Positions 2,382 to 40,548 are shown, counted from the stretch's first letter. The stretch is 64,000 nucleotides of DNA from an uncultured Acidimicrobiia bacterium (GCA_963752075.1 CAVVWO010000005.1:30523-94522); one strand, 5' to 3'. A program made the numbers and translations. Notes: a model not told the origin generated them from the sequence alone.

Positions 2382-2461
2382 CGCCCGTCCTCTGATCGTC
2401 GTGGTCTGCGAATAACCTACTATGCGAGATGTAAACGTTCGTTAACTGATGGGAAGATGAC

Positions 2462-3288
2462 GTGGCAGGGCTCACAGGGAAGACGATGTTCATTTCGGGG
2501 GCAAGCCGTGGAATCGGCCTGGCCATTGCCAAACGGGTGGCCGCAGACGGCGCCAACGTGGCATTGGTGGCCAAGACGGCCGAACCTCATCCGAGGCTCG
2601 AGGGGACGGTGTTCACGGCGGCCGCAGAGATCGAGGCTGCCGGGCGGGAAGGCCCTTCCCATCGTCGGCGATATCCGGTTCGAGGATCAGGTGTTCGGCG
2701 CCGTCGAACGGACCGTCGCCGAGTTCGGTGGTATCGACCTGTGCGTGAACAACGCCTCGGCGATCGATCTGCGCGGTACGGAAGCGTTGCCCATGAAGTC
2801 CTACGACCTCATGCAGACGATCAATACACGCGGCACCTTCCTCGTCTCGAAGGCCTGCATCCCGGCACTCAGGAAGTCCGCACAACCCCCACATCCTCAC
2901 GCTCAGTCCTCCGCTGAACATGGCGCAGCACTGGTTCCAGAACCATGCCGCCTACACGATCGCCAAATACGGGATGAGCATGTGCACGTTGGGCATGTCC
3001 GCCGAGTTCTGCTCCGAGGGGATCGCGGTGAACAGCTTGTGGCCGAGGACGATCATCGCCACGGCGGCCGTCCAGAATCTCCTCGGCGGCGACGAGGCGA
3101 TGGCTCGGTCACGGAAGCCGCAGATCATGGCCGACGCCGCCTACGCCATCTTCTGCCGACCGAGCCGCCAGGCGACGGGCAACTTCTACATCGACGACGA
3201 GGTGTTGGCCGAGGAAGGCGTCACCGACCTCTCCGGGTACGCCTACCGTTCCGACGCAGAACTCCAGACGGACATCTTCCTCGACTGA
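2462..3288 (+). CDS. SDR-family oxidoreductase (two apparent frameshifts)
   Basis: Rossmann motif FISGASRGIGLAIAKR (ORF 2462..2917). CVNNASAI and TINTRGTFLVSKA lie in the ORF 2166..3347 frame. Catalytic YTIAKYGMS is in ORF 2920..3288. Confidence 0.75.
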
Positions 3289-3340
3289 AGTCATCGGCGG
3301 CGGCACGGGCGTCGGAGCTCTCGTCCGGGCGGGCGGGTGG

Positions 3341-4147
3341 TCAGTGACCGGACAGGAAACCCTCGAGGAGCGGGACGACCAGGTCTGGTTGCTCCATGGC
3401 GGGGAGGTGCGCCACCCCTGGCCAACTGGACGAACTCGCGCGGTGGGTATCAGGTCGGCGACCAGCGACGAGCGTTCGACGATGAACGGCAGGTCGAGGC
3501 TGCCGACGAGTACGAAGGTGGGAACGGCGATCTGGCCGAGTCGTTCGAAAGCAGGAGGGCGCGGTCGCTCCTCTCCGGGGCTGGGTGCAGCCAGTGCCAG
3601 TCGGTTCATCTCGAGGAAGAGGTCACGCACCTCACCCGGCGACACGCCCCTCGGGAGCGGAGGGGCCATCGAGCCAGAGGTGAGCTTCGAGACGGTTGAC
3701 CTCGTCGAGGTCGCCTGCCTCGTCGGCGGCGTCGAGGGCGGCGTCGAGAGAGAGAAGCGGCTCGGTGAAGCCTTCGGGCGGTGGAGCTCCAGACACTGCG
3801 GTCCCGATCAGGACCAGTCCCCGGCATCGTTCCGGGTCGGCGAGTGCGAAGTCGAGGGCCAGGCCGCCACCCATCGAGTTCCCGACGAGCGTCACCGCAT
3901 CCATTCTGTGGTGGTCGAGCACTGCCCGGAGGTCGTCCAGGTGTGAGAACTCCCTGGCCTCATAGCTGGTCTCGCCGAAGCCGCGCCGGTCGTACGACAC
4001 CGCGTGATGGGTGGCCGAGACCTCGGACTGGCACTCAGCCCAGCTTCGTCGGTCGGCGACCCCTGCGTGCAGGAACACGACGCCGTCGCCATCCCCGCTC
4101 GACTGGCCGACGATCTGGGCACCCTCGAACATCAACCGCCACGCCAT
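3341..4147 (-). CDS. Alpha/beta-fold hydrolase (apparent frameshifts in the 3' third)
   Basis: ORF 3632..4147 carries VVFLHAGVADRRSW and the nucleophile elbow VGNSMGG. The C-terminus AHLPAMEQPDLVVPLLEGFLSGH was recovered by hand, ending at the stop complement of 3341-3343. Confidence 0.7.
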
Positions 4148-12046: not shown

Positions 12047-12460
12047 TCAGTTGATGGCGGTGCCTGAGGCGTCGATCACGAACCAGACGTCGTTGACGCC
12101 CTGGCCATTGGTATCCCCTGGGGCGGAGTCGTTGGCGAAGTAGTAGAGCGGCCAGTCGTTGTACGTCGCCTGCTCCGAACCATCGCTGCGAGTCGTCGTC
12201 CCCAACAGGTCGCCACTTGCTCCGGAACCTGCCGAGACATCCCCCGCCACGGCCGGCCAGTTCTCGAGGCATCCGTCTTCGCACGTCGAATCGCCCTGAG
12301 CGTCCGGGACGAATAGGTACACCGTGTTTCCGTCCGAATCGGCGAGGATCGTGCCGAGATCCGAATCGCTTGTCACCACCTGCAGTCCGTCGTCGCCTCC
12401 GCATGCCGCGGCGAGCAATCCAAGGGTGAGGGCCACCGCCAGAAGTCGTCGAGTCATCAT
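12047..12460 (-). CDS. Secreted lipoprotein of the COG4315 type (Y-x-F/Y-x-x-D repeat family)
   Basis: Lipobox LLAAAC. Also GNTVYLFVPD, CEDGCLENWP and WPLYYFANDSAPGDTNGQG. Confidence 0.7.
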   Translation of the reverse strand: MMTRRLLAVALTLGLLAAACGGDDGLQVVTSDSDLGTILADSDGNTVYLFVPDAQGDSTCEDGCLENWPAVAGDVSAGSGASGDLLGTTTRSDGSEQATYNDWPLYYFANDSAPGDTNGQGVNDVWFVIDASGTAIN

Positions 12461-12555
12461 TGTTCCTTTCGTTGGGTTCTCGCATCTGTACGGCCAAGCC
12501 CCGCTTCTGGTTCTCGGCCGCACACAGCCGAGCGCTATCGGGCAGAATGCGACCC

Positions 12556-13089
12556 ATGTCCGATGTCGAACTCCTCGATCGCTTCCGAGCCGGGGACGAG
12601 ACCGCCGTGCGAGAACTGTATATCCGCTACTCGCGGCCGGTCTTCACCGTGGTCTACAGCGTTCTCCAGGATCGGGAACTCGCCAACGATGCCGTCCAGC
12701 AGACCTTTCTGAAGGCGTGGAACGGAGCCCACCGTTTCGACACGGATCGCCGATTCGAGCCGTGGTTGTACGCGATCGCCCGCCGGGTGGCCATCGACGT
12801 CTGGCGCAAGGAACGCCGCACCCCGATCCCCTCCGAGTTCGCCGAACCGATCATCGACCGTGATGCGACGGACGGCTTGTGGGAGGCTTGGCAGGTACGA
12901 AAAGCGGTGGACCAGCTGCCTGATGACGAGGCGACCATCGTCAAGCTGGCCCACTTCGAACAACTCAGCCATCAGGAAATCGCCGACAAGATCGACGTGC
13001 CGGTCGGGACCGTGAAATCACGCTCCCACCGCGCTCATCGCCGACTGGCCGAGGTTCTCGGATTCCTGAGGAACGACGACAATGAATGA
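12556..13089 (+). CDS. ECF (sigma-70 family) RNA polymerase sigma factor
   Basis: Region 2 is YSRPVFTVVYSVLQDRELANDAVQQTFLKAW. Region 4 is LSHQEIADKIDVPVGTVKSRSHRA. Confidence 0.85.
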   Translation: MSDVELLDRFRAGDETAVRELYIRYSRPVFTVVYSVLQDRELANDAVQQTFLKAWNGAHRFDTDRRFEPWLYAIARRVAIDVWRKERRTPIPSEFAEPIIDRDATDGLWEAWQVRKAVDQLPDDEATIVKLAHFEQLSHQEIADKIDVPVGTVKSRSHRAHRRLAEVLGFLRNDDNE

Positions 13090-13124
13090 ACCAGTGCCCC
13101 CATTAGTCCGTAGTGAAAGAGACC

Positions 13125-13769
13125 ATGTCTGAAGAGCGATTCGCCGAAGACCTCGATCCCGAGAACGCCGCCCCGGCCGGCGCGGCGGCGCGGGTGCGCG
13201 GCTACCTCTCGGAGGCCGGCATGTGGGCCGAGCCGGAAGCCGGCATGGAAGACAGGATCGTTGGTCTCATATCCGCCCGGGCAGGCGAGACAACGCGTGA
13301 GTCGAGCGCCGAAGAGGACAACGTTCGTCCTCTCTTGTCCCGACCTGCCGCCATGTGGTTCGGCGCAGCGGCCGTGGTGGCGCTCATCGTCCTGGGAGCG
13401 CTCACCCTCAACGCCACGCGGGGCGATGACCGGGTCGGAGTCGATGTCGTCCTCCAGGGCACCGAGTTGGCGGCCGGGGCGTCAGCGGACGGCTTGGTGA
13501 TCACCACCGACGCCGGGTTCGCAATCCGCCTGGAGATCGTCGGCCTGCCTCCGGCTCCATCCGGCACCTTCTACCAGGGCTGGGTGAGGGGCGAGGCCGG
13601 TAGTGTGGCGATCGGTACCTTCCACATGCGTGGCGACGCCCCGATCGGACTGTGGTCCGGCGTCGAGGTGTCCGACTACCCCACCATCAACATCACCCTT
13701 CAAGACGAGGGCGCCGGACCTCAGCCGTCCGGAAAGATCGTGCTCACGGGTCAGATCCCGACCGACTGA
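13125..13769 (+). CDS. Anti-sigma factor (single TM, RskA-like C-terminal domain)
   Basis: It lies immediately downstream of the ECF sigma gene. It has a central TM segment (MWFGAAAVVALIVLGALTL) and a C-terminal FYQGWVRGEAGSVAIGTF...PTINITLQDEG. Confidence 0.65.
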   Translation: MSEERFAEDLDPENAAPAGAAARVRGYLSEAGMWAEPEAGMEDRIVGLISARAGETTRESSAEEDNVRPLLSRPAAMWFGAAAVVALIVLGALTLNATRGDDRVGVDVVLQGTELAAGASADGLVITTDAGFAIRLEIVGLPPAPSGTFYQGWVRGEAGSVAIGTFHMRGDAPIGLWSGVEVSDYPTINITLQDEGAGPQPSGKIVLTGQIPTD

Positions 13770-13858
13770 GTCCCGCTTCGGAAGGGCCACCAGTCCCTAT
13801 CGGGACGCTTCGCCTTGATTCCATTCTGGGGAGAGAGGTCACGAGAAGGGAGCTCGCG

Positions 13859-14230
13859 ATGACCCTGCTTCGAGAGCGGGAAACGCTCGAAACGCGCCCG
13901 ACACCCAACGTGGTGCGGACCAACCTCGAGATGACATTCGGGATCCTTGGCGTACTGGTGGCGGCCCTGGGTAGTTGGATGTTCCTCGCTGATGCCGCCT
14001 CGGAAATCACCGTGGTCGCATGGACGTGGGAGGTCGGTGCTCTTGCCGCCGGCTGGCCCCTTGGAACACTGGTCGGAGGCGGCCTTCTCATGGCCGCCGC
14101 GTTCGGCGTGATGGCCTACCGGGTGTACCGCCGGGAGGAGGCATTCACGGTCAGGCCATACATCGCTTTGGCCGGATCGCTGCTGGGAGCGGCTATCGCC
14201 GTCGTCTCCGCCTTGGTTTGGATCTTCTGA
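13859..14230 (+). CDS. Small membrane protein (about 3 TM)
   Basis: ATG 13859 follows GAGAAGGGAG. The sequence has hydrophobic helices and I recognise no family. Confidence 0.5.
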   Translation: MTLLRERETLETRPTPNVVRTNLEMTFGILGVLVAALGSWMFLADAASEITVVAWTWEVGALAAGWPLGTLVGGGLLMAAAFGVMAYRVYRREEAFTVRPYIALAGSLLGAAIAVVSALVWIF

Positions 14231-14320
14231 CGAGACAAGAGGACTGACGCCGCCACGCCGGCCCAGGTGACGGCAGCCGGTGTGGCGGACTCGTTCGTGG
14301 CGTCGAGTAGCGTTTCCCGG

Positions 14321-15223
14321 ATGCAGACTCGAGCCAATCTGGCCATTCTCTTCGCCTCGATCGGTTGGGGTTTTGCCGCCGTTGGTACTCGGTATCTCTT
14401 CCTCGGTGGCGCGACCACCTTCAGCGTCGTTTCGGGTCGGACACTCTTTGCCGCTCTGGCCGTTGCGCTGTTCGCTTTGGTGATTAGGCGAAAAGTGGAC
14501 GCCACGGCGTGGAAGCGCGGCGCCGCGATCGGCTTCCTCCGTGTCGGAATGGCGCCGATCCTCTTCATTGCGTCACTCCAATACATATCCGCCGGATTCG
14601 AGGGTCTCGTGATCACCCTGATTCCGGTCGTGACAGCGGTCATGGCTCACTTCGTCCTGGGCGAACGTCTGGTCCTGCTGCAGTCCGTCGGCCTGTTCCT
14701 CGGCCTGGTCGGTACCTCTCTTCTCATCCTGTCGGGTGAGTCTGGAATCGCGGACGGCGGGAACGCCCTGGTCGGCGGCGGGCTTGCTCTGGGCGGAGTG
14801 GCTTTCGGATCGGCCTCCGGCATCCTGCAGCGCCGATACGCGCCCCACCACGACACTCGGGATCTGGCCATCCCGATGTTCCTGACCGGAGCGGCCCTGG
14901 TTCTGACAGTCGGAATGGTCACCGGAGGTATCGAACCTTCGAGCATTCCGGCTGGGGGATGGTATGTGTTGGTTGCTCTGGCGATGGGCAGCACCTTGCT
15001 CCCGTTCGTCGCCACGCTCTTCGCCTCCCGCTACACGACAGCCGGCCGGGTCGCGCTGGTTGGCTACCTGGCGCCGCTCATTTCCCTGACGGCCGGGGTC
15101 ATTCTGCTGGACGAGGTGATCACCCCATTCATCCTCGTGGGAGGGTCGATTACGTTGGCGGGCGTAGCGATTGCCGGGAGGGCAAATACAGGGCGTCAGA
15201 CCATCATCAAGGCCACGGCCTGA
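14321..15223 (+). CDS. DMT/EamA-family transporter
   Basis: Ten-TM profile and duplicated EamA-like halves (ILFASIGWGFAAVGTRY). The start is uncertain (14267 or 14321). Confidence 0.8.
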   Translation: MQTRANLAILFASIGWGFAAVGTRYLFLGGATTFSVVSGRTLFAALAVALFALVIRRKVDATAWKRGAAIGFLRVGMAPILFIASLQYISAGFEGLVITLIPVVTAVMAHFVLGERLVLLQSVGLFLGLVGTSLLILSGESGIADGGNALVGGGLALGGVAFGSASGILQRRYAPHHDTRDLAIPMFLTGAALVLTVGMVTGGIEPSSIPAGGWYVLVALAMGSTLLPFVATLFASRYTTAGRVALVGYLAPLISLTAGVILLDEVITPFILVGGSITLAGVAIAGRANTGRQTIIKATA

Positions 15224-15283: not shown

Positions 15284-15883
15284 ATGCCGGAAGAGTCTGA
15301 AGTTCGGGAGGTTGTCCGCCGTGTTGTGGCCGGACTCATGGAGGGCGAACACCACCCCGATGGCTCGTCGATGGGCATCACACCTGGCTCCCTCCCTGGT
15401 CCGGGTGAGTCGACTTCGGAGCGGCCGACCATCGCCGTCGGAGCCGATCACGGCGGCTATCCCCTCAAAGAACGCATCGGTTTCCGGCTCAAAGAGGCAG
15501 GCTACGAGGTGGTTGACTGCGGCACCGACAGTGCCGACTCGGTCGACTACCCCGACTTCGCCCACGCAGTCGCCAGTGCGGTGTCCGAAGGCCGAGCCAC
15601 CTACGGCATCATCGTGGACGGCGCAGGAATAGGCTCGTCGATGGTGGCGAACAAGGTTCCCGGGGTGCGGGCGGCACTGTGCTACGACCTCTCCAGTGCC
15701 CGCAACAGCCGAGAACACAACCATGCCAATGTCCTGACCCTCGGGGCGGGGCTCATAGGCGCAGGGCTAGCATGGCAGATCACGGAGGAGTGGCTCGCCA
15801 CACCGTGGGGCCCCGGTCGCCACGCCGATCGGGTCGCCAAGATCACCGAAATCGAACGCCGATACCTGAAAGCGGGCTCATGA
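15284..15883 (+). CDS. rpiB: Ribose-5-phosphate isomerase B-like (RpiB/LacA family) with N-terminal extension
   Basis: IAVGADHGGYPLKERI, GIIVDGAGIGSSMVANKVPGVRAA and AREHNHANVLTLGA. About 45 extra N-terminal residues begin with the amphipathic SEVREVVRRVVAGLM. Confidence 0.85.
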   Translation: MPEESEVREVVRRVVAGLMEGEHHPDGSSMGITPGSLPGPGESTSERPTIAVGADHGGYPLKERIGFRLKEAGYEVVDCGTDSADSVDYPDFAHAVASAVSEGRATYGIIVDGAGIGSSMVANKVPGVRAALCYDLSSARNSREHNHANVLTLGAGLIGAGLAWQITEEWLATPWGPGRHADRVAKITEIERRYLKAGS

Positions 15884-16728
15884 ACACAGAAGAGCTCATC
15901 GAGGCCGTCACGCGGGAGGTGTTGACTGCCCTCTCCGGGCGGGATCCCTGTGAGGACTGTCACGGGAGTTGCGCGGCCCACAGCCCGGACAAGGTGAGGT
16001 CCGTCGTCGCAAACGGGGCTGATCGTGTTTCGTATCGGGGCGAGGGCTCCGAGGTTCCGCTCGACCTCGCCAAATACATCGACCACACGCTCCTCAAGCC
16101 CGACGCCACCGCCGATGACATCGATCAGCTCTGCTCAGAAGCGGCCGAGTACGGATTCGCCTCGGTTTGTGTCAATCCGGCCTGGGTGAAACGGGCCGCC
16201 ACGAACCTACGTGGTACCGAGGTCCGCGTGGCCTCCGTCGTGGGTTTCCCGTTCGGCGCCACCACGTCGGATATCAAGGCCATGGAGACGCGACGGGTCT
16301 TGCGGGACGGTGCCAGGGAGATCGACATGGTGATCAACATCGGAGCTCTCAAATCCGGTCAACACGATGTGGTTCGAGAAGACATCGCCAAGGTCTCCGA
16401 CGCCTGCCACGAAGTCGGGGCGATCAACAAAGTGATCATCGAGACCACCCTCCTCGACGACAAGGAGAAAGTCATCGCCTCCCATCTCGCCAAAGAGGCC
16501 AAGGCCGATTTCGTCAAGACCTCGACCGGTTACGCCGGGGGTGGCGCCACCATCGCCGACGTGCTCCTCATGCGTGAGACGGTGGGTCCGAACATGGGCA
16601 TCAAGGCATCCGGCGGAGTGCGAAATCGAGAAGATGCCGAAGAGATGATCGCGGCGGGTGCCACCAGGATCGGCGCCTCGGCGGGCATCGCCATCGTGAC
16701 GGGAGGAACCTCGAGTGAGCAATATTGA
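15880..16728 (+). CDS. deoC: Deoxyribose-phosphate aldolase with N-terminal extension
   Basis: [21 protein letters not shown], the Schiff-base region [10 protein letters not shown] and [11 protein letters not shown] overlaps the rpiB stop (ATGA). The N-terminus is [18 protein letters not shown]. Confidence 0.9.
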
Positions 16729-17341
16729 ACTACGGTCCTATGCGTTCTTGGACAGCCTGCAACCGCAGTACGCAGCCTTCATCGGCACGACTGCGCCCGG
16801 GTTCTTGCCGTTGGCAGGCGAGGCGTCCCTGTTCGTGGAAATCTCGCCCGGGATCGAGATCAACCGCCTCACCGATGTGGCGCTCAAATCCAACAAGGTC
16901 AAACCAGGCATGCAGATCGTCGAGCGGTACTTCGGCCTCCTCGAGATCCACTCTCCGGAACAGGCCGAAACCCGGGGCGCCGGTGAGGCCATCCTCGAGG
17001 CGTGCGGGCTGACGGAGGTAGACCGGATCAAGCCGCGCATCCTCTCGAGTCAGATCGTTCGCCGTATCGATGACCATCAGGCGCAACTCATCAATCGCAT
17101 GCGCCATGGGCAGATGATCATTCCCGGTCAGACGCTGTACGTGATGGAATGCGAACCCGCCGCCTACGCGGCGTTGGCGACCAACGAGGCCGAGAAGGCC
17201 TCCAACATCAACGTGCTCGAGGTGCGGGCATTTGGCGCCATGGGGCGGCTCTATCTCGGTGGAGAGGAAGCGGACGTCGAGGTCGGGTGGCAGGCTGCGG
17301 TGGCGGCGTTGGAAGGTCTCGAAGGACGAGAAGCGAAGTAG
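16715..17341 (+). CDS. BMC-T shell protein, permuted tandem-domain type (CsoS1D/HO-T2/T3-like)
   Basis: 208 aa. [21 protein letters not shown]...[21 protein letters not shown] and [41 protein letters not shown] closely resemble the Haliangium double-stacking BMC-T proteins, from memory. Confidence 0.85.
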
Positions 17342-17379
17342 TCGAAAAGGTATCGAGAAGAAGAAACGAGGAGGAACAC

Positions 17380-17670
17380 ATGGCCGATGCTCTGGGAATG
17401 ATCGAGGCGCGCAGCTTCCCGGCGATGGTGGAAGCAGCCGACGCCATGGTGAAGGCTGCCAAAGTGGAGCTGGTCTCCTACGAGGAGACAGGCGGCGGGT
17501 ACGTGACCGCCATCATTCGAGGTGACGTTGCCGCGGTGAAAGCCGCCGTGGATGCCGGAGTGCGCGGCGCCGAACGGGTCGGTGAAGTCATTGCCACCCA
17601 CATCATCGCCCGCCCCCACGCCAACATCGACGCCATCCTGCCTCTGGGGCGCGCCGACGCGGCAGAGTAG
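17380..17670 (+). CDS. BMC-H hexameric shell protein (Pfam00936 type)
   Basis: ALGMIEARSFPAMVEAADAMVKAAKVELVSYEETGGGYVTAIIRGDVAAVKAAV. An RBS GAGGAGGA lies upstream. Confidence 0.92.
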   Translation: MADALGMIEARSFPAMVEAADAMVKAAKVELVSYEETGGGYVTAIIRGDVAAVKAAVDAGVRGAERVGEVIATHIIARPHANIDAILPLGRADAAE

Positions 17671-17685
17671 GAAAGGGAGTCCCGC

Positions 17686-17973
17686 ATGCTGCTCGGACGA
17701 GTCGCCGGCACGCTGGTGGCCAGCCGCAAGGAGTCGCGTCTCGACGGACTCAAATTCCTGGTGCTGGCCCAGCTGGATATCGACAACGCCGAGACCGGCT
17801 CGTACGTGGTGGCAGCAGACGCCGTCGGCGCCGGAGTCGGGGAGGTGGTCCTGTACGCCAGCGGAAGCTCAGCCCGGCAGACCGAGTACACCCACGAACG
17901 ACCCGTCGACGCAGTGGTCATGGCGATCGTCGATACCTGGGAAGTTGCCGGAGTGGATCGGTATAGCAAGTAG
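17686..17973 (+). CDS. BMC-P pentameric vertex protein (EutN/CcmL family), paralog 1
   Basis: [15 protein letters not shown]...LKFLVLAQL...[23 protein letters not shown]...[10 protein letters not shown]. Confidence 0.9.
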
Positions 17974-17976
17974 ACG

Positions 17977-19436
17977 ATGAGCGGCCTCAGCGAAGTTGAA
18001 ATCCAGGCAATCATCGACCGAGTCCAGCAACGACTCGGCGATGTTTCCTCGCGGTCTCGGCCGGCGGCATCTCTGGCTGCCCAGACAGAACTCGATGCGG
18101 CGGTGCAACTCGGCGACGGAATCTACCGCACCATCGATGAGGCGGTCGCGGCCGCCAAGCGAGCGCAGGCGCTGTACTCCGAGATGGGGCTGGGAGCTCG
18201 GTACGAGATCATCGACGCGGTGCGTCGAGCCATGCTCGAGCAGGCAGAACACCTGGCCATGCTCGCCCACACCGAGACGGGGCTTGGTCGCTACGAGGAC
18301 AAGGTCCGCAAGAACCGACTGGTGACCACCAAGGCCCCCGGTCCGGAGGACCTCGAGCCGCAGGCCGTGACCGGTGATGGCGGCATGGCCGTCATGGAGT
18401 GGGCGCCGGTCGGCCTCGTCGGGGCAATCACTCCTACCACGAACCCCACTTCCACCATCATCAACAACACGATCTCGATCGTGTCGGCAGGAAACGCAGT
18501 GGTGTTCAACGTCCATCCCGGGGCGAAGAACGTCTCGGCCGAGAACGTGCGCTTGCTCAATCGCGCCATCGTCGGCGCCGGCGGGCCGCCCGATCTCGTG
18601 ACGGCGATCCCCGCTCCGACCATCGACAGCGCCAAAGAACTCATGCAGCATCCCGACGTTCGGGTCTTGCTCGTGACGGGTGGTCCGGGAGTGGTGCGCG
18701 AAGCGCTCAAGACGGACAAACGGGCGGTTGCCGCGGGACCAGGCAACCCTCCTGCCGTCGTCGATGAGACAGCCGACATCGAGCGCGCCGCGCGCTGTAT
18801 CGTCGCCGGCGCTTCCTTCGACAACAACATCATCTGTACCGACGAGAAGCTGGCGATCGTCGTCGAGTCCGTCGCCGACCGCCTGGTCCGGGAAATGGCA
18901 AGGCCGGGGCCTACGTGTTGAAACAGCACGAGCTGCAGCGGCTCGAGCGAGTCATCTTTCGAGAGATGGGCCAGCCGAACAAGCCGGGCGTGATCAATCC
19001 GGCCTGGATCGGCAAGAACGCCTCGGTGATTCTCGCCCAGATCGGCGTACAGCTCGATGAGGATGTGCGACTGGTCGTCGCCGAGGTGCCGGTCGAGCAC
19101 AGCCTGGTTTGGACTGAGCAGATGATGCCGGTTTTCCCGGTGGTCCGCGTGCCGAACGTGGATGCCGGTATCGATTTGGCCGTGCGGGCCGAGCATGGTT
19201 TCCGTCACACGGCAGGTATCCATTCGACGAATGTGGAAACGATCACCCGAATGGCCCGTGCCATGAACTGTTCGATCTTCGTGGCGAATGCATCGTTTTT
19301 CGCCGGCCTGGGCGAAGGCGGCGAGGGTTACTCCTCCTTCTCGATCGCTTCACCCAGCGGGGATGGCTTGACCAGGCCCCGCACCTTCTCACGTCCCCGG
19401 CGGGTGACCGTCGTGGGGGCGCTCCGTATTGTCTGA
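17977..19436 (+). CDS. Acylating (CoA-dependent) aldehyde dehydrogenase, PduP/EutE type, with N-terminal extension (one apparent frameshift near 18900)
   Basis: ORF 17977..18921 joined to ORF 18915..19436. Motifs ITPTTNPTST, VVFNVHPGAK, GPGNPPAVVDETADI and NIICTDEK (catalytic Cys). The N-terminus is SEVEIQAIIDRVQQRL. Confidence 0.85.
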
Positions 19437-20043
19437 TGCGACGCACATGACCACGGAAAGCTCCTTGCGGCCCGCCATAGCCCTTCTCGAATTCGACTCG
19501 ATCGCGGCAGGAATAGAGGCAGGCGACGCCATGGTGAAGCGCTCGCCTCTCGATGTTCTCTTGGCCGGCACGGTGCAGCCGGGCAAATACCTCGTCCTTG
19601 TGGGAGGTCAGGTTGCCGATGTCGAGGAGGCCGTGGATGCCGGTCGCCAGGTGGCCGCGCAGCATCTCCTGGACGAGGTCTTCCTGGCCGATATCCACCC
19701 GCGAGTGGTCGAGGCTCTGGTCGGAACTCGGATGGAGGGATCCGGCGAGGCGCTCGGAATCATCGAAACCGCCACCGTGGCCGCAGTGATCGAGGCAGCC
19801 GATGCCGGGGTCAAAGGAGCGGTCGTGACCCTGCGAGAGATCCGGCTTGCCGATGGTCTTGGCGGCAAGGCCTATCTCTTGTTTGACGGGGAGGTCGGCG
19901 AGGTCGAAGCGTCGGTGGATCTCGGGACGGCTCGCATTCCCGGTCAGGTCCTGGGAAGCCGCGTGATCGCCCAACTGCATCCGGAGATGGACGAGAATCT
20001 GGCGGCCGACGGACGGTTCGCCCGCAGGATCAGGGGACGGTGA
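19429..20043 (+). CDS. BMC-T shell protein, tandem-domain single-layer type (PduT/HO-T1-like)
   Basis: Two BMC domains: AIALLEFDSIAAGIEAGDAMVKRSP and ALGIIETATVAAVIEAADAGVKGA. The start is TTG 19429 or ATG 19447. Confidence 0.85.
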   Translation: MSDATHMTTESSLRPAIALLEFDSIAAGIEAGDAMVKRSPLDVLLAGTVQPGKYLVLVGGQVADVEEAVDAGRQVAAQHLLDEVFLADIHPRVVEALVGTRMEGSGEALGIIETATVAAVIEAADAGVKGAVVTLREIRLADGLGGKAYLLFDGEVGEVEASVDLGTARIPGQVLGSRVIAQLHPEMDENLAADGRFARRIRGR

Positions 20044-20047
20044 CGGC

Positions 20048-20365
20048 GTGCACTTGGGGCGAGTGATCGGCACCGTCGTGGCAACGACCAGGACCCCGGA
20101 CCTCGACGGGGTCAAATTCCTGATTGTTCAGCCGCTCACCCGACAGCTCGAGCCGAGCGGCCGCCCGGTGGTGGCCGCCGACGGCGTTGCGATGGCCGGA
20201 CCCGAAGAGCTCGTTTACTTCGTCGGAAGTCGCGAGGCGGCTCAAGCGATGCCGGAGCCGTTCGTGCCGGTTGACCATGCCATCGTGGGCATCGTCGATG
20301 CCGTGGACCTGATCGAGGCGCCGGCCGGTCCCGCCAAGCGCCCAACGAGGAAGAAGAAGTCGTGA
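20048..20365 (+). CDS. BMC-P pentameric vertex protein, paralog 2
   Basis: MHLGRVIGTVVATTRTPDLDGVKFLIVQPL...VDHAIVGIVD, with a basic C-terminal tail. Confidence 0.88.
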   Translation: MHLGRVIGTVVATTRTPDLDGVKFLIVQPLTRQLEPSGRPVVAADGVAMAGPEELVYFVGSREAAQAMPEPFVPVDHAIVGIVDAVDLIEAPAGPAKRPTRKKKS

Positions 20366-20637
20366 AGGTGGCCCGCGTCTCGGGGACGGTGGTCTCGACC
20401 ATCTCGGCGCCGGTCTTCGGCGGCCGGCAACTTCTGCTGTGCGATTACGTGCACCCCGACGGCACCGCCACTGGCGACTACACCATTGCGGTCAACGTGG
20501 TGGGAGCGGGCGTCGGGGAGACCGTGCTGATCCTCGATGAGGGCACCGGCGCTCGTCAGATTCTCGGCGAGACGGTGGCTCCGGTGCGGGCTGTCGTGGT
20601 CGGGATCGTCGACGAACTCGAGATGAGCGGGACCTGA
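20362..20637 (+). CDS. BMC-P pentameric vertex protein, paralog 3
   Basis: MKVARVSGTVVSTI...LLLCDYVHPDG...AVNVVGAGVGETVLILDEGTGARQ...VRAVVVGIVDE. The GTG start overlaps the upstream stop. Confidence 0.88.
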   Translation: MKVARVSGTVVSTISAPVFGGRQLLLCDYVHPDGTATGDYTIAVNVVGAGVGETVLILDEGTGARQILGETVAPVRAVVVGIVDELEMSGT

Positions 20638-20657
20638 CCCCTTTCCATCGAGGGTGC
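20427..20657 (+). repeat. Left copy of a direct repeat (3' two-thirds of BMC-P paralog 3 plus 20 nt downstream)
   Basis: By hand alignment this matches 29325-29519. A 104-nt core (20528-20631 vs 29390-29493) is identical. The flanks carry a few substitutions, and the left copy has 36 nt that are missing from the right copy. Confidence 0.85.
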
Positions 20658-20873: not shown

Positions 20874-23800
20874 ATGGCCGGCAGTGAGCGGACCGATTTC
20901 GCGGTAGCGGTGGACCTCGACCGATTCGCGGCGGGTTGGCGGCTCCTCCTCGGGCGACCCGATGTCATCGACCTCGGTGATTTGATTGGCCCCCGGCGCC
21001 GAGTGCCAGACATCGTCGTCGATGTGATGCGCTCCGAGGACCTGGCGGCCTTCACGGTGGAGGGATACGATCTCGAGCTGGTGGTCGGAGACGCACCGAT
21101 CCTGCGTCCCACGCCGGACAACGACGGGCTTCTGCTCGTCCGTTTCCCGTTCCAAAACCTCGCCGAGGACGCCATCTATGAGACTCCCGAGGGTGGTCGA
21201 CCGCCTCAGGTGCCGCACCCGGACGACCCGACGCTCCCGCCGATCGACGATCCGGATTTCGACCCTTCGGACGCCCGACCCGTGCCCCCGATCGATGCCC
21301 GGCCTGCCAAGAACAGCCGGCTCGTTTTTCGTGTTCCGCAAGGGGACGAGATCGAGTTCAGCACGCAGGGCATCCTCGATGCCATGGGTGACCTCGAGAT
21401 GGTGGTGCATTCGCTCGCCATGCCGCGCCCACCGGCCCTGCCCGGTCCGATCGAAGGTCCCATTTTCGAACTGCCGGGCGGCTTCACCGGGGTGCTGGCG
21501 ACCGATGGCCTGATCGTTCGTGCCGGCACCGAAGACATCGTCCGGGGAGAGGCGACCCCGGCCGAAGCGTTGAGCGCCCATGCACGCGACGCCCGCCGCG
21601 CTCGCGCCATCCTCTCGACACGGGCAGGCTTGGTGATCGGCGCCGACCTGAAAGTCGACGCATCCGACGTCCGATCCTTCACGATCGGCGGTGTAGAGGT
21701 GACGGTGCCTGGCTCGATGGTGGGAAGCGATCTGATCCTCCCTGATCTCGGCGTGAAAGTCCGGCCTCGGAAACGCCTGAGCAAGCCAGCCGCCCAACTC
21801 GAAACCGCCATCGAAGCCCCGTTCCGACTCATCATTTCGCCCAGCGACCAGGGCGGATGGGCGCATTCCAACCTCCCCGTCGCGGCCGGGGACGCTCCCC
21901 ACCGGGTGGAACTCTGGCACAGTCGGCTCGGAGTGCGGGTCGACTCCGGCGATGAGGTTGCTGTCGACGAACGTGCCAATCGACAGCGGATCGTGCGCGC
22001 CATATGGACCAGAGACCGGGAACGGTTCCCGGATTGGCAAGACCCGGCGAATCAGCCGGACCACGATCACGATCCCTTCAGAACCTCACTCGATGGCGCC
22101 GACCGTCACATGTTGGTGCGACAGACTGCTGAGACGTGGATTGGCGTCGGAAATCGCACGATCAGCCCGGTACCGGCCGATGCCACGGGCCTCTTTCTCT
22201 CCAGCCTCGGCGCCTGGGTCGACTTGCACGGAACGTGGACGACGGCGCCGTATTCGGAGGCAGGACTCGAATCGATCCTGCTGTGGGATCACGTGGCGCC
22301 GATGGGACGGGATCAGTTCGTTCGTGTCATGTACCCGGGGTATCTGTACCCGTTCGGCCACAAGGCAACGCTCGTCAAGGTGACCGAACGGAAGATGAAG
22401 GACGCCTCGCCATCGATCGCCAGTCTCTACCAACGAATGTTCATCGTGGTCGGTGAGGCCCTCAAGACCTTCTCGCAACGCGATCTCCCGTTTGATGAGG
22501 TGCGCCTTTCGCCCCTGGTCACCCCGACCATCGACGATCCTGGCACCGCCAACCTCAACAAATTCTTCTTCCCTTCTGTCGGCGGCATCGATTTCCCGTT
22601 CAATCTCCACACGGTCGACCGGGAAGGAACCCCCATCAGCCTCGTTGCCCCACTCATGTGGGTGGCCGAGTCTTTCGGAAGCAACGCGACCAACAGAACG
22701 GCAGTCGATTCCGCCTATGCGTCGAGTCCGAACAGCACCATCTCGGCCGGTGGTCAAAAGATCGCCTACGCGCCCGTCAAGAAGGGCGGCGACACCGTGT
22801 CCACGACCACGACGCTGAAGATGGCCGGAGCGGCATCGACGACGTCCGCCACTCCGAAGCTCGCCACGGCGAGCGTCGTCCTCCCGGCCGTCGAGCAGCT
22901 TTCGCCCGTTGGAGACGTGGTCATCCAATACGCCCAGACGTACCTCGGCAACGGTTTCGGCGGCACCGCCAACTCCGGAGACGTGTGGGCTGAACTCACC
23001 GGCGTCATCCCCAATCTCGCCTTTGGAGGCAACGGAGCGGGCAGCGACAAAGCGGGCGGGTTTCTTCAGCCCAACATGGCGATCAAAGGCTTGTCTCGCA
23101 TCAGCGGAACCGTCGGCGACGTGGCCGGCGCCGCCACCCAGACGTTTGATCCTGCCCAATTCCTGGCATCCGGCGTGGATCTCCCCAAGCTGTTCGGAGT
23201 GGTCGAGTTGCTCGACCTCATCGAGCTGGTCGTAGGCGATCTCGATCGAGCACCAAGCATCGTCTCCGAAGCCCTCGACCGAATCGAAGGCTTCGTTGCC
23301 GATCTGGAGCGAGCCAAGAAGATGGTGGAAGATGCCGTCGCCGAGGCCCAGAAGCTCGTCGACAGAGCCGCCAACAAAGCAGCCGAACTGCAGACCCAAG
23401 CCCAGCAGGCTCTCACCGCTGCGCAGAATCTCCAGGGGACCATCGAGGCGGCCGTCGACGACATCCTCGATCAGATCGCCGCTCTCCCCGGTGCCACCGA
23501 GGCCGCAGTGCAAGCCGCGCTTGCCAATCCTCTCCAGGCACTCAAGACCGCCACCACGGAGATGGAACAGGTCGCCCCACTGCTGCCGCCTCTCATCCGC
23601 CAGCAGCTGCTCAATCTGGCCAAGATCCTGCGGACCATCGCTGACGCCGTCGATATCGTCACGGACATCTATCGGTTCCTCAACGGGTTCGGGACCAGCG
23701 CAGTGATGGCTTCGTTCCGATTCGAGTGGAAGCCACCGATGAAGTCGTGGCCGAATGCCAACGATCCGATTCTGGCTCTCCAGGAAGACAGCTTGGTTTT

Positions 23801-24710
23801 GGCGGTCGAGGGCCGGGTGTCGGGCAAGGGCGAGATGGGGATCGAGGTGCTCGCCGAGCTGCGCGACTTCGTCCTTCACCTCCTACCGGCGGCTCCTCTG
23901 GTGCGGTTCAAGTTCGACCACCTCGCTTTCCGAGCCGGGTCGAGCGGCAAGCCAGAGGTCGATGTCGTCCTGCAAGACATCGAGTTCGTCGGGATTCTCT
24001 CGTTCATCGAGGTCCTCAAGGAGCTGATTCCGTTCGATGGCTTCTCCGACCCGCCGTTCCTCGAGATCGACGCCTCGGGTTTGACGGCCGGATTCACGCT
24101 CGACCTGCCCAACGTCGCCATCGGGGTGTTCAACCTCTCCAACATGTCGCTGGGCGCCGACATCCAGGTTCCCTTCCTGGGAAAGTCGGTCACCGTCGGA
24201 TTCAACTTCTGCACGCGCGAACGCCCGATGACACTCACCGTGATGGCCATCGGCGGCGGCGGCTGGTTCATGATCCGCCTGGCGCCCGACGGGCTCGACG
24301 TGCTGGAACTGGGTCTCGAGGCCGGCGCCGCTCTGGCCGTCGATTTCGGTGTGGCGTCCGGCTCCATCTCAGCCATGATCGGTATCTACATGCGGCTCGA
24401 GGGCGACACAGGCTCGTTGACCGGCTACTTCAGGTTGCGCGGCGAAGTCGATGTGCTTGGCTTGATCTCGGCTTCGATCGAGCTCTACCTCGAGCTCGTT
24501 TACGAGTTCGACAGCGGGAAGATGATCGGCTCCGCCCGATTGACGGTGAAGGTCGAGGTCTTGTTCTTCTCTGCCTCGGTCACCATCGAATGCGAACGGC
24601 GTTTCGCCGGCTCCAACGGCGATCCGAGCTTCCTCGACATCATGGGCCTGGAACCCGACGGTTCCTCGCCAGCCTGGTCGGAATACTGCCTCGCCTTCGC
24701 AGGAGCGTAG
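20874..24710 (+). CDS. Giant hypothetical protein 1 (1278 aa): Pro/Asp-rich N-terminal region, central coiled coil, Gly-rich hydrophobic beta-like C-terminus
   Basis: Uninterrupted ORF 20736..24710. ATG 20874 is preceded by GAGGGGGA. I saw no signal peptide and no named domain. Details are in the findings. Confidence 0.8.
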   Translation: MAGSERTDFAVAVDLDRFAAGWRLLLGRPDVIDLGDLIGPRRRVPDIVVDVMRSEDLAAFTVEGYDLELVVGDAPILRPTPDNDGLLLVRFPFQNLAEDAIYETPEGGRPPQVPHPDDPTLPPIDDPDFDPSDARPVPPIDARPAKNSRLVFRVPQGDEIEFSTQGILDAMGDLEMVVHSLAMPRPPALPGPIEGPIFELPGGFTGVLATDGLIVRAGTEDIVRGEATPAEALSAHARDARRARAILSTRAGLVIGADLKVDASDVRSFTIGGVEVTVPGSMVGSDLILPDLGVKVRPRKRLSKPAAQLETAIEAPFRLIISPSDQGGWAHSNLPVAAGDAPHRVELWHSRLGVRVDSGDEVAVDERANRQRIVRAIWTRDRERFPDWQDPANQPDHDHDPFRTSLDGADRHMLVRQTAETWIGVGNRTISPVPADATGLFLSSLGAWVDLHGTWTTAPYSEAGLESILLWDHVAPMGRDQFVRVMYPGYLYPFGHKATLVKVTERKMKDASPSIASLYQRMFIVVGEALKTFSQRDLPFDEVRLSPLVTPTIDDPGTANLNKFFFPSVGGIDFPFNLHTVDREGTPISLVAPLMWVAESFGSNATNRTAVDSAYASSPNSTISAGGQKIAYAPVKKGGDTVSTTTTLKMAGAASTTSATPKLATASVVLPAVEQLSPVGDVVIQYAQTYLGNGFGGTANSGDVWAELTGVIPNLAFGGNGAGSDKAGGFLQPNMAIKGLSRISGTVGDVAGAATQTFDPAQFLASGVDLPKLFGVVELLDLIELVVGDLDRAPSIVSEALDRIEGFVADLERAKKMVEDAVAEAQKLVDRAANKAAELQTQAQQALTAAQNLQGTIEAAVDDILDQIAALPGATEAAVQAALANPLQALKTATTEMEQVAPLLPPLIRQQLLNLAKILRTIADAVDIVTDIYRFLNGFGTSAVMASFRFEWKPPMKSWPNANDPILALQEDSLVLAVEGRVSGKGEMGIEVLAELRDFVLHLLPAAPLVRFKFDHLAFRAGSSGKPEVDVVLQDIEFVGILSFIEVLKELIPFDGFSDPPFLEIDASGLTAGFTLDLPNVAIGVFNLSNMSLGADIQVPFLGKSVTVGFNFCTRERPMTLTVMAIGGGGWFMIRLAPDGLDVLELGLEAGAALAVDFGVASGSISAMIGIYMRLEGDTGSLTGYFRLRGEVDVLGLISASIELYLELVYEFDSGKMIGSARLTVKVEVLFFSASVTIECERRFAGSNGDPSFLDIMGLEPDGSSPAWSEYCLAFAGA

Positions 24711-29274: not shown

Positions 29275-29499
29275 ATGTTCCGACGATCCGGAAATGCCGG
29301 CCAACATCCGTCCGCCACGGGACCGCAACTTCTGCTGTGCGGCTACGTGCACCCCGACGGCACCGCCTCGGGCGACGGGGAGACCGTGTTGATCCTCGAT
29401 GAGGGCACCGGCGCTCGTCAGATTCTCGGCGAGACGGTGGCTCCGGTGCGGGCTGTCGTGGTCGGGATCGTCGACGAACTCGAGATGAGCGGGGCCTGA
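29275..29499 (+). pseudogene. Truncated BMC-P remnant (copy of the paralog 3 C-terminus with a 12-codon in-frame deletion)
   Basis: Translation ...QLLLCGYVHPDGTASGD-GETVLILDEGTGARQILGETVAPVRAVVVGIVDELEMSGA, compared with paralog 3 QLLLCDYVHPDGTATGDYTIAVNVVGAGVGETVL... It lacks the conserved N-terminal strand and the VGAGVGE segment. Confidence 0.75.
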
Positions 29500-29519
29500 T
29501 CCCTTTCCATCGAGGGTGC
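29325..29519 (+). repeat. Right copy of the BMC-P-derived direct repeat
   Basis: See 20427-20657. Similarity ends at ...cgagggtgc on both sides. Confidence 0.85.
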
Positions 29520-29695
29520 TTGGAGACGCAGGGCTTGGTCGAAGCTGGAGAAAAGGGCCGGGGCCTTGCCCATCATCGTTGGATTCGGTTTGTGGCGGGG
29601 CTAGGGTCGACGTCGTTCGTCTGACCCTCCACGACTGGCATGCCGATCCATCGCACTCCGTACTGTCCAGCGCAACTGAGAGACCCTGCGGGCTC

Positions 29696-31198
29696 GTGAG
29701 AAGCTTCATTCCGTCCCTTTCGAGTCTCTCGCGCTACGCTGCCGCCCTCGTCGGATTAGCTGCGCCCACCCTCTTTTTTTGGGGCACCTATCGAAGCTCG
29801 GCGGCGTGGTTTCCGGTTCCGCCGATTCCCTGGTCCCACTTGATGGCCTCACTCGTCCTTGCGGTGATCGCCGATCTCGTCATAGCTTTCGTCCTGGTAC
29901 GGCTCGGTAGCTCGCTTTCCGACGCTGTCGTCGCAGCGGTTATCCCCGTCTGGTTTTTGTTCTTCTACTCGCGGACGTTGATAGGACTGTCCATCGTTAC
30001 GTTCGAGGTTGTCTCGCTCCGTTGGCTGAGATTCCTGTTCTGGCTACTCCTCCTTGGTCTCGTGGCGCTTGTTTCGAAGGCTGTGCAGCGCGGGAACGGA
30101 CCGGTTATCGCGGCAGCCGTCGCCGTGTTCGGGGTTGCTTCCATCGCCCAACATGCTCATGCACTGATTGCTCCGCCGTCGGTGCAGCCCGCCCCGGCGT
30201 CCTTCACGATCACCGAGGAGAAGAATGTGTGGGTCCTCGTCTTCGACGAACTGGCGTCACCGTTGTTCCTAGGGCGGTACGCGACCGATCCGCCCCAGAT
30301 CGTCAAGATGCTCGAGAACCAGGGATTCGAAGTTCCTCTGGCGCCAGTGAGTCCGTACAGCCAGACCTACCCTGCCCTCACCTCGATCTTCACCTTGGAC
30401 CCGGTGCGACCGGGTATCTATGGAGAGGATGACTGGGCGGCCAGATCAGCGGTCTTCGGCGGTGACCATCCGCTCGCCCGCTCCTATGTCGACGAAGGGA
30501 GGCCGGTGGTTCTCGTGGAGGCTCCAATTTCGCCGGGATATTGCAGCGACATCGTCACTGACTGCCACCCTGCCCTGCTGGACGATTTCGACAGGTTCTT
30601 GATCGCAAATACGGCCCTCTTCGAGCTGCCCGGTTCGTGGAGGAGCTGGGCCGAACAGGGGCTCGCCCAGATGGATCGACTCGATGAGGTCGCACAGGAA
30701 GGAGGAACGGGTCGGTTGATCCTGGCGCATGTCATGCTCGCCCACGGGCCCTACCTTCTCGATTCCGCCTGCAACACCTCTCTTCCCTCTGTGTACTCCT
30801 CGGAGAAGTACATGGATCAGGTCGGGTGTCTGGGCTCGAGGCTGTCGAAGCTCGTCTCGGTGATTCCACCCGACGATGTGGTGTTGATCCTCAGTGATCA
30901 TGGGATCACCCGCGCCGAGCCATATCCGATGGATACGCCCGAGGCTCGGGAGGAGCGTCTGGTGTCGTTTGTCGCCCTGAGAGGGTGTCAACCATCCGAC
31001 GAGTATCTCGACTCCAACGTCAACGCCTACCGGGCACTGGTCAATTGCGTTACGACGGCATCGCTGGAGCCTGTCGTGGTGCCCCCAACCCTCACCTGCT
31101 ACCTGGGGAAAGACACCATCGAACTTGTCGAGATTCCGAAGGGTGTTCCTACAGACCCGGTTGAATGCCGGGAGGGTTCACGGAATGTGGGTTCATGA
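29696..31198 (+). CDS. Membrane protein with C-terminal sulfatase/alkaline-phosphatase-superfamily-like domain
   Basis: ORF 29516..31198. It has about 5 N-terminal TM helices, then VWVLVFDELASP, LILAHVMLAHGPYLLD and VLILSDHGI, motifs typical of LTA-synthase or phosphoethanolamine-transferase-like enzymes. The start is uncertain (GTG 29696). Confidence 0.6.
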   Translation: MRSFIPSLSSLSRYAAALVGLAAPTLFFWGTYRSSAAWFPVPPIPWSHLMASLVLAVIADLVIAFVLVRLGSSLSDAVVAAVIPVWFLFFYSRTLIGLSIVTFEVVSLRWLRFLFWLLLLGLVALVSKAVQRGNGPVIAAAVAVFGVASIAQHAHALIAPPSVQPAPASFTITEEKNVWVLVFDELASPLFLGRYATDPPQIVKMLENQGFEVPLAPVSPYSQTYPALTSIFTLDPVRPGIYGEDDWAARSAVFGGDHPLARSYVDEGRPVVLVEAPISPGYCSDIVTDCHPALLDDFDRFLIANTALFELPGSWRSWAEQGLAQMDRLDEVAQEGGTGRLILAHVMLAHGPYLLDSACNTSLPSVYSSEKYMDQVGCLGSRLSKLVSVIPPDDVVLILSDHGITRAEPYPMDTPEAREERLVSFVALRGCQPSDEYLDSNVNAYRALVNCVTTASLEPVVVPPTLTCYLGKDTIELVEIPKGVPTDPVECREGSRNVGS

Positions 31199-32857: not shown

Positions 32858-33464
32858 ATGGTCACAACGCAAACCGATGGTCGGCAGCGCCTGCTCGAAG
32901 TGGGCGCCGATCTCTTCCATGACCGTGGCTACACCGAGACCACCCTTCGAGACATCGCTCAACAGGCAGGGATGAAGGCCGGTTCGATCTACTACCACTT
33001 CGCGTCCAAGGACCATTTGCTGACCGAGGTACTACGCATCGGCATGGCAGCCATCACCGATGCCTTCCTAGCCGCTGCCGATGCTCGGACGTCGGACGCT
33101 GCCGACGCGCTTGCGGGCGGCGATCTCAGCCCACATGGAGGCGCTCTTTCGGCATGGACCGTTCACGACTGCTCATGTCAGCGTCCTGGGGCGCGCTCCC
33201 AAAGCAGTCCGCGACCAGATCGTTCCCCTTCGCGACGCCTACGAGTCACTCTGGACCCAACTTCTCTCAGAGCTCCGAGACGAGGGCGCTCTTCGTCCCT
33301 CGCTCGACGTTCGTTTCGTTCGCCTCAACTTGCTGGGCGCCATGAACAGCTCGTTGGAGTGGTTCGACCCGGCAGGGGAGCAGCCCCTCGAGATGCTGAT
33401 CGATCACCTGGTCGATCAGTTCTGGGCAGGACTCGCCAAATCAGACCTCACACAGGAGAATTGA
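32858..33464 (+). CDS. TetR-family transcriptional regulator (apparent frameshift near 33110)
   Basis: HTH RLLEVGADLFHDRGYTETTLRDIAQQAGMKAGSIYYHFASKDHLL. The C-terminal domain is in ORF 33081..33464. Confidence 0.8.
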
Positions 33465-40401: not shown

Positions 40402-40548
40402 GAAGAACGCTGGAAGCGCTCTTCAACGAACTGACATCGTCAGTTCGCGACGGTGTCAGTTCGCGACATCGTCAGTTCGCGTCGTTGGGCGGGGGAAGAA
40501 CGCTGGAAGCGTTCTTCAACGAACTGACCATGTCAGTTCGCAACGATG
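40402..40548. repeat. Duplicated ~48-bp double-hairpin element plus extra GTCAGTTCGCG half-sites
   Basis: Copy 1 is 40402-40450 and copy 2 is 40496-40543. Each carries GAAGAACGC-tggaa-GCG(C/T)TCTTC followed by CGAACTGAC-(atc or cat)-GTCAGTTCG. GTCAGTTCGCG also occurs at 40455 and 40471. Confidence 0.8.

Follow-up and report, generated by a model that had tools for sequence, protein, structure and literature searches.

A probable SPU3-type bacterial microcompartment operon with a frame-broken aldehyde dehydrogenase gene in an uncultured Acidimicrobiia bacterium

In a 64 000-nt stretch of DNA from an uncultured Acidimicrobiia bacterium (GCA_963752075.1, CAVVWO010000005.1:30523-94522; G+C content 64%), hereafter called the window, nine co-directional genes on the plus strand encode the enzymes and shell proteins of a bacterial microcompartment (BMC), most probably one of the sugar-phosphate-utilising (SPU) class and of its subtype SPU3 (table 1). 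A previous inspection of the DNA without database searches (the sequence-only reading) had proposed the identities, order and coordinates of these nine genes, and all were recovered here through Pfam and NCBIfam searches. Consecutive genes are separated by −14 to +38 nt, as expressed from the end of one to the start of the next. The same reading had described the operon as complete: the nine genes are indeed there, but the gene for the acylating aldehyde dehydrogenase (AldDH) is split by a one-base deletion. Thus, as AldDH reads as two open reading frames (ORFs), the locus is complete only if this break is an assembly error.

Table 1. Genes and gene remnants discussed in the text, with their positions counted from the first letter of the window.
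Feature	Position	Strand	Evidence or remark
RpiB-like protein, 199 aa	15284-15883	+	PF02502, E 1.4e-51
Deoxyribose-5-phosphate aldolase (DERA/DeoC), 282 aa	15880-16728	+	TIGR00126 deoC, 277 bits; PF01791
BMC-Tdp, permuted tandem-domain, CcmP-like, 208 aa	16715-17341	+	NCBIfam NF053796, 325 bits, residues 4-207
BMC-H, 96 aa	17380-17670	+	PF00936, E 1.1e-29
BMC-P 1, pentamer vertex protein, 95 aa	17686-17973	+	PF03319, E 6.3e-28
Acylating AldDH, 486 aa with frame restored	17977-19436	+	PF00171 in both pieces
BMC-Ts, two canonical BMC domains, 204 aa	19429-20043	+	PF00936 twice, E 1.1e-34
BMC-P 2, 105 aa	20048-20365	+	PF03319, E 2.9e-24
BMC-P 3, 91 aa	20362-20637	+	PF03319, E 1.4e-21
EamA/DMT transporter	14267-15223	+	PF00892, E 6.6e-30
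Giant gene 1, 1278 aa, intact	20874-24710	+	236 nt 3' of BMC-P 3
Giant gene 2, about 1517 codons	24715-29267	+	tblastn with L005 and L006 orthologues
Truncated copy of BMC-P 3	29308-29499	+	lacks first ~20 codons; 36-nt internal deletion
Enoyl-CoA hydratase, split at least once	1718-2381	−	
Short-chain dehydrogenase/reductase (SDR) over three frames	2462-3288		Pfam profile positions 1-37, 48-126, 133-200
Alpha/beta hydrolase, probably split	3109-4147	−	
TetR regulator, N- and C-domains in different frames	32858-33461		

All three cargo proteins (RpiB-like, DERA and AldDH) have an N-terminal extension with a conserved helix. In the RpiB-like protein, this extension consists of an amphipathic helix and a linker of approximately 30 aa; a comparison of five Acidimicrobiia shows the helix to be conserved and the linker variable. 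Its Asp112 occupies the position of Cys66 in Escherichia coli RpiB and its His145 that of His99, the E. coli sequence used for this mapping having passed position checks. With its catalytic Cys replaced by Asp, the RpiB-like protein probably serves as a scaffold for DERA or as its partner in encapsulation instead of acting as an isomerase. A Cys-to-Asp substitution is carried by all SPU ribose-5-phosphate isomerase homologues (RPIs), the isomerase activity of which on ribose-5-phosphate is negligible; a DERA-RPI complex has been reported, and a role of RPI in packaging has been suggested (PMC11585597).

The DERA retains the catalytic residues D149, K213 and K242. Its N-terminal extension of approximately 62 aa consists of a conserved helix, a Cys-rich motif and a further conserved element. 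Its best relatives in the PDB are DERAs, which align from residue 61 on, and an AF2 model gives a pLDDT above 92 for the core and of 52-82 for the extension. Many of the top-scoring relatives (at the level of 50% clusters, drawn from 1.8 billion cluster representatives) are 430-530 aa long and are matched only over their C-terminal DERA part; their length and the position of the match suggest that they are RpiB-DERA fusions, and such fusions are reported among SPU3 loci (PMC8217296, Supplementary Data 2). The frame-restored AldDH, for its part, aligns end to end with the BMC AldDH 5JFL (E 8e-124) and retains the catalytic Cys motif FDNNIIC. The AldDH fold runs from about residue 45 to the C-terminus, as compared with 5JFL and 4C3S, without any C-terminal extension, and is preceded by approximately 45 aa (SEVEIQAIIDRVQQRL and a linker). 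A conserved helix followed by a variable linker is again found, and this extension is a putative N-terminal encapsulation peptide.

The shell set is full, with one BMC-H (facets), a BMC-Ts, a double-stacking BMC-Tdp and three BMC-P (vertices). The BMC-Tdp, a candidate gated large pore, matches PF00936 weakly, as expected of a permuted domain, and its relatives carry a precomputed match to PF27545 (CsoS1D_N). BMC-H, in which KAAK and ARPH motifs occur, is the only hexamer protein of the shell. The three BMC-P proteins are mutually 32-42% identical (39-42% for BMC-P 1 versus the other two), and the genes of BMC-P 2 and BMC-P 3 overlap by 4 nt, an adjacent pair that is typical of the BMC-P triplet of SPU loci. 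BMC-Ts starts at a TTG codon (19429), with an alternative ATG at 19447; it is PduT-like (TIGR02526, 100 bits, under the cutoff), and its translation contains no cysteine.

The operon holds no recognizable enzyme of cofactor recycling. Pfam searches for PduL (PF06130), Pta (PF01515), iron-type alcohol dehydrogenase (Fe-ADH, PF00465), AckA (PF00871) and PduS domains found none of them in the operon, in agreement with the sequence-only reading, which had seen no phosphotransacylase, alcohol dehydrogenase or acetate kinase there. The same scan over the approximately 55 other ORFs of the window returned no PduL, Pta, Fe-ADH, acetate kinase, PduS, triose-phosphate isomerase or class II aldolase, and the sole gene of the window resembling an alcohol dehydrogenase, a Zn-MDR on the minus strand (40533-41564), lies 20 kb off.

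Matches to AldDH and to the giant genes for which a source name is given are mostly labelled Acidimicrobiia. The closest genome is that of an uncultured Acidimicrobiia, a metagenome-assembled genome (L001 and L011, on a 99-kb contig) with approximately 82% DNA identity, in which synteny extends from a GMC oxidoreductase through an extracytoplasmic function (ECF) sigma factor and its anti-sigma, the EamA transporter and the nine BMC genes to a Na+/H+ exchanger and beyond. In three more distant Acidimicrobiia (L008, L009 and L010), the nine genes are found in unchanged order amid entirely different flanks, and the cassette can therefore be considered a self-contained unit. No PduL, Adh or PduS was found within 10 kb on either side of the cassette in any of these four loci. 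When the nine genes are compared with those of L001, the ratios of non-synonymous to synonymous substitution rates (dN/dS) range from 0 to 0.13 at dS of about 0.5 to 1.07, the BMC-H proteins being 100% identical although dS = 0.49, and all nine genes thus appear to be under strong purifying selection.

The combination of DERA, RpiB-like protein and AldDH is the published signature of SPU loci (PMC8217296), so that the class proposed by the sequence-only reading holds. Within this class, SPU3 is represented by 31 catalogued loci, with host phyla that include Actinobacteria (Sutter et al. 2021, Nat Commun, PMC8217296). Its enzymes comprise AldDH, pfam01791 and pfam02502 and no others; the RPI gene precedes that of DERA and is in some cases joined to it in a fusion (PMC8217296, Supplementary Data 2). 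Encapsulation peptides are found at the N-termini of AldDH and DERA, and the shell includes a BMC-P triplet, a Tdp of the CcmP-like clade and a Ts with neither a co-occurring PduS nor a pore cysteine (PMC8217296). The window agrees with every SPU3 feature examined, as judged by the verbal description of the catalogue and not by its hidden Markov models (HMMs) or trees: its enzyme genes are limited to the same three (AldDH in split form), RPI precedes DERA, and both DERA and the frame-restored AldDH are extended at the N-terminus; the shell combines one BMC-H and a CcmP-like Tdp with a BMC-P triplet of which two members are adjacent and a Ts without cysteine or PduS partner, and the host is an Acidimicrobiia. 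It differs in having separate RPI and DERA genes, which are fused in 12-20 of the catalogued SPU3 loci, in its frame-broken AldDH and in an extra, truncated BMC-P located 8.9 kb downstream.

With PDU and EUT compartments, the cassette shares a signature enzyme that makes an aldehyde in the shell and an acylating AldDH that converts it to acyl-CoA. However, in PDU and EUT compartments CoA is recycled by PduL or Pta and NAD+ by an alcohol dehydrogenase, both within the shell, whereas the window encodes neither. The sequence-only reading had inferred that CoA and NAD+ recycling must come from elsewhere or from an unrecognized component; the absence itself is borne out, but it belongs to the published definition of SPU3. 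Across the class, phosphotransacylase (PTAC) is found in nearly every SPU1, SPU4 and SPU7 locus, and alcohol dehydrogenase (AlcDH) only in part of the SPU2, SPU4 and SPU6 loci; SPU operons devoid of PTAC usually include a BMC-Tdp gene, and an exit of acetyl-CoA through its large gated pore has been proposed (PMC11585597).

From the genes and residues observed, we infer by analogy the substrate, the fluxes and the permeability of the compartment. Deoxyribose-5-phosphate derived from DNA or nucleoside breakdown would, according to the literature on the family, enter the shell and be split by DERA into glyceraldehyde-3-phosphate, which would leave, and acetaldehyde, which AldDH would trap as acetyl-CoA while reducing NAD+ to NADH. 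The RpiB-like protein would mainly act as a DERA-binding packaging partner. As the locus lacks PTAC, AlcDH and a PduS-PduT electron relay, acetyl-CoA and CoA may, as published, be exchanged with the cytosol via the gated pore of BMC-Tdp (approx. 14 Å wide); an exchange of NADH and NAD+ through the same pore would be our own extension of the published proposal on acetyl-CoA.

As it stands in the window, AldDH is made of two ORFs in different frames, 17977-18921 (314 aa) and 18915-19436 (173 aa). In homologues, AldDH is a single protein of 485-487 aa; the best match (P0001) shares 95% identity with the restored protein. One G is lost from a GGG run at 18896-18898 (plus strand), where the window reads ATGGC versus ATGGGG in L001 and where the frame needs ATGGGC; dN/dS versus L001 amounts to 0.033 for the part preceding the break and to 0.010 for the part following it. 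The window as a whole contains at least 10 frame breaks resembling single-base events, both insertions and deletions, and the affected genes show no in-frame stops and no larger deletions. These breaks are clustered, with approximately five of them in the 1.7-4.2 kb region and four in giant gene 2, and for the frame-broken genes at 1718-4147 and 32858-33461 local assembly indel errors are suggested.

Related sequence was found in six sediment metagenome runs, three of which (X1, X3 and X6) hold low-depth, near-identical contigs, and no read or contig of the public metagenomes spans 18 856-18 921 or the four break sites of giant gene 2. The short-read contig of X3 stems from a near-identical population; over 151 nt, two 1-nt indels (2399 and 2430) and only two substitutions set it apart from the window, a ratio suggesting assembly indel errors rather than natural divergence. 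Two other explanations were considered and set aside. Programmed −1 frameshifting in AldDH was rejected, because the source frame offers no X XXY YYZ slippery site and all the homologues are single ORFs. A link to methylation-linked basecalling errors at GATC was not used: of eight indel sites, three are at most 6 nt away from a GATC versus approximately 9% expected, but GATC occurs every 112 nt and most of the site positions are imprecise.

Downstream of BMC-P 3 lie two giant genes, at which the sequence-only reading had hinted as the possible missing component of the compartment. Giant protein 1 has 380 homologues, all hypothetical (best identity 63%, excluding the window's own P0121), none of which carries a Pfam domain. 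Giant gene 2 is colinear with orthologues of 1518-1524 aa through frames 1, 2, 3, 2 and 3 in turn, with changes near 25485, 25565, 27560 and 28220 (tblastn and three-frame translation). Searches of the two protein sequences against Pfam, NCBIfam, PADLOC and the PDB brought up nothing beyond coiled-coil noise. In an AF2 model (mean pLDDT 61), the last 533 aa of giant protein 1 form a helical bundle and long beta-hairpins, and a Foldseek search of the PDB with this model gave no match with E ≤0.001 and no TM-score >0.2.

In two Acidimicrobiia assemblies and one Actinokineospora alba (L005, 10001-18385; L006, 10001-18412; L007, 10001-17009), giant gene 1 is always followed directly by a gene of approximately 1520 aa, with no BMC genes nearby; conversely, the pair is not adjacent to the nine-gene cassette in L008, L009 and L010. 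In L001, the 2.2 kb between BMC-P 3 and the Na+/H+ exchanger (12656-14855) hold six colinear giant-gene fragments with 78-86% identity, which indicates that the pair was present in the common ancestor and was later destroyed by stepwise deletions, the nine BMC genes meanwhile remaining intact and under strong selection. As the pair occurs without BMC genes and the cassette without the pair, the role suggested for the giant proteins is not supported: to judge by gene neighbourhoods, they are an independent two-gene module, unrelated to the BMC operon. The pair is flanked by direct repeats (20422-20657 and 29320-29519, 89-97% identity), the second of which is the truncated copy of BMC-P 3. As the two are far closer to each other than BMC-P 3 of the window is to its L001 orthologue (approx. 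82%), a partial duplication or a gene conversion may have taken place recently. A predicted membrane protein of 560 aa (29516-31198), with no match in Pfam, NCBIfam or PADLOC, is missing from the syntenic region of L001.

We consider it likely, on the whole, that the locus is an SPU3-type BMC operon, with an AldDH break that is most likely an assembly indel error and a giant pair that is an unrelated, decaying module. Several points weigh against this interpretation. The subtype call rests on the wording of the catalogue, and the putative substrate, cofactor exchange and assembly of the shell are all extrapolated from SPU6 enzymology and bioinformatics. No deoA, deoB or deoD, genes that would supply deoxyribose-5-phosphate, was seen in the window. 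AldDH as written cannot be translated into one protein, and a real break would mean that the pathway no longer works in this copy.

Because the assignment is based on features, another catalogued type has to be weighed. SPU2 shares with the window the minimal set of enzymes, the CcmP-like Tdp and the single Ts, but it possesses a fourth BMC-P of the green clade and a pore Cys in 80% of its Ts, and it is listed in Bacteroidetes, Spirochaetes and candidate phyla rather than in Actinobacteria, whereas the window has three intact BMC-P and a Cys-free Ts. SPU6, which is restricted to Chloroflexi and is the only SPU type with characterized enzymes (Dwyer, Sutter, Kerfeld 2024, Commun Biol), resembles the window in its DERA (extension of 60-70 aa, D/K/K residues), in the Cys66-to-Asp substitution of its RPI, in the absence of PTAC and PduS, and in having one H, a Tdp and three P. 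Nevertheless, its AldDH belongs to another branch of the AldDH tree and carries its encapsulation peptide at the C-terminus, whereas the extension in the window is N-terminal; its Tdp is of the blue clade and not CcmP-like, the description of its shell lists no BMC-Ts, and a EutQ-like protein of 130 aa (in SPU6) and a GntR (in the GWB2_54_36 operon) have no counterpart in the window. The likeness to the shell of Haliangium ochraceum (HO) claimed by the sequence-only reading is real and already published (PMC8217296): the HO type shares one BMC-H, the BMC-P triplet, a Ts with a CcmP/CsoS1D-like Tdp and an N-terminal encapsulation peptide on AldDH. Yet HO has two Tdp (three T in all) versus one here, and its main loci contain neither DERA nor RPI. 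Any of these three types in place of SPU3 is accordingly quite improbable. It is also unlikely, if somewhat less so, that another sugar phosphate is processed and that the RpiB-like protein is a real isomerase acting on a different substrate. Such a possibility is left open in PMC11585597, and His145 and the Asp at the catalytic Cys position are conserved; however, the DERA is an equivalog-level match to deoC with all catalytic residues present, and in SPU6 the DERA accepts deoxyribose-5-phosphate, whereas the RPI has essentially no activity on ribose-5-phosphate (PMC11585597).

The break in AldDH is probably an assembly error. That it is real, in an SPU3 locus freshly inactivated and at the start of its decay into a pseudo-operon, seems doubtful, although the deletion is present in the sequence itself, the breaks are clustered rather than evenly spread, and the neighbouring giant pair is truly decaying in the clade, as seen from the six deletion-bounded fragments in the short-read assembly of L001. 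Against these observations, the dN/dS following the break would require a very recent inactivation, and single-base insertions and deletions without nonsense codons, which also hit the SDR, enoyl-CoA hydratase and TetR genes, are typical of long-read indel errors and not of natural pseudogenes; moreover, the near-identical short-read contig contradicts the window at two single-base indels. As for the giant proteins being unrecognized BMC components, e.g. for cofactor recycling or scaffolding, we give this hardly any credence. The pair does share the strand of the operon, begins a short distance beyond BMC-P 3 with no predicted terminator between, and is followed by a BMC-P fragment. But it is found with no BMC gene at all in three loci and is missing from the surroundings of the cassette in three others, it has been reduced to fragments in L001 next to BMC genes under selection, giant gene 2 is frame-broken in the window, and neither protein shows a terminus like an encapsulation peptide, a cofactor-binding domain or any other recognizable domain.

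The extension of DERA contains a motif, C24-x2-C27-H28-x2-C31-x2-H34 (DERA residues 24-35, window positions 15949-15984), that seems to have gone without discussion: it is not taken up in the main text of Dwyer et al. 2024, and a full-text literature search found no paper that discusses it. When 45 diverse DERAs with such an extension are aligned, C24 and C27 prove invariant, and the conservation of C31 reaches at least 90%. Among 53 cluster representatives with an AGAxR-type extension, 38 have at least four Cys in the 38 residues upstream of the AGAxR element. The spacing varies with the lineage: C-x6-9-C-x2-C-x2-C in proteins of fusion length, C-x3-C-x4-C-x3-C in Anaerolineae (including the cultured Levilinea saccharolytica), forms such as C-x2-3-C-x3-5-C-x3-C, and C-x2-C-H-x2-C-x2-H, i.e. 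three Cys and nearby His residues, in the clade of the window. The motif has been lost from part of the lineages, other Acidimicrobiia among them, which argues against an indispensable role. It resembles a four-ligand metal site, and a structural Zn knuckle or a disulfide would be the more likely, conservative reading. An Fe-S or other redox-active metal centre belonging to an NADH/electron route is highly improbable; if true, it could be part of an unrecognized route for NADH or electrons inside the shell of PduS-less subtypes such as SPU3.

On its 5' side, the operon is preceded by the EamA/DMT transporter gene, at a distance of exactly 60 nt as the sequence-only reading had noted. This gene adjoins the cassette only in the window and in L001, other neighbours being found in L008, L009 and L010; it is a neighbour of the operon and not a conserved part of the BMC locus. 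Just 5' of EamA, an ECF sigma factor, an RskA-type anti-sigma and a small membrane protein (12460-14230) form a group whose conservation extends to L001 and not to relatives further away. Beside the operon, no GntR or DeoR-type regulator was seen, L008 having a MarR gene instead. A regulatory scan found no sigma-70-like promoter, terminator-like sites were no more frequent than expected by chance, and neither Rfam families nor tRNAs were detected.

The locus thus represents one further Acidimicrobiia example of SPU3, a type catalogued in 2021, in which the absence of recycling enzymes is a published hallmark and not a new finding. For the study of CoA and NAD+ turnover in metabolosomes without PTAC, AlcDH and PduS, it offers no better test than the numerous intact loci available from better assemblies or from cultures, e.g. 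of Levilinea saccharolytica. Its interest for specialists lies rather in the widespread four-Cys motif of DERA and in the domain-less giant pair (approx. 1270 and 1520 aa) found across Actinomycetota.

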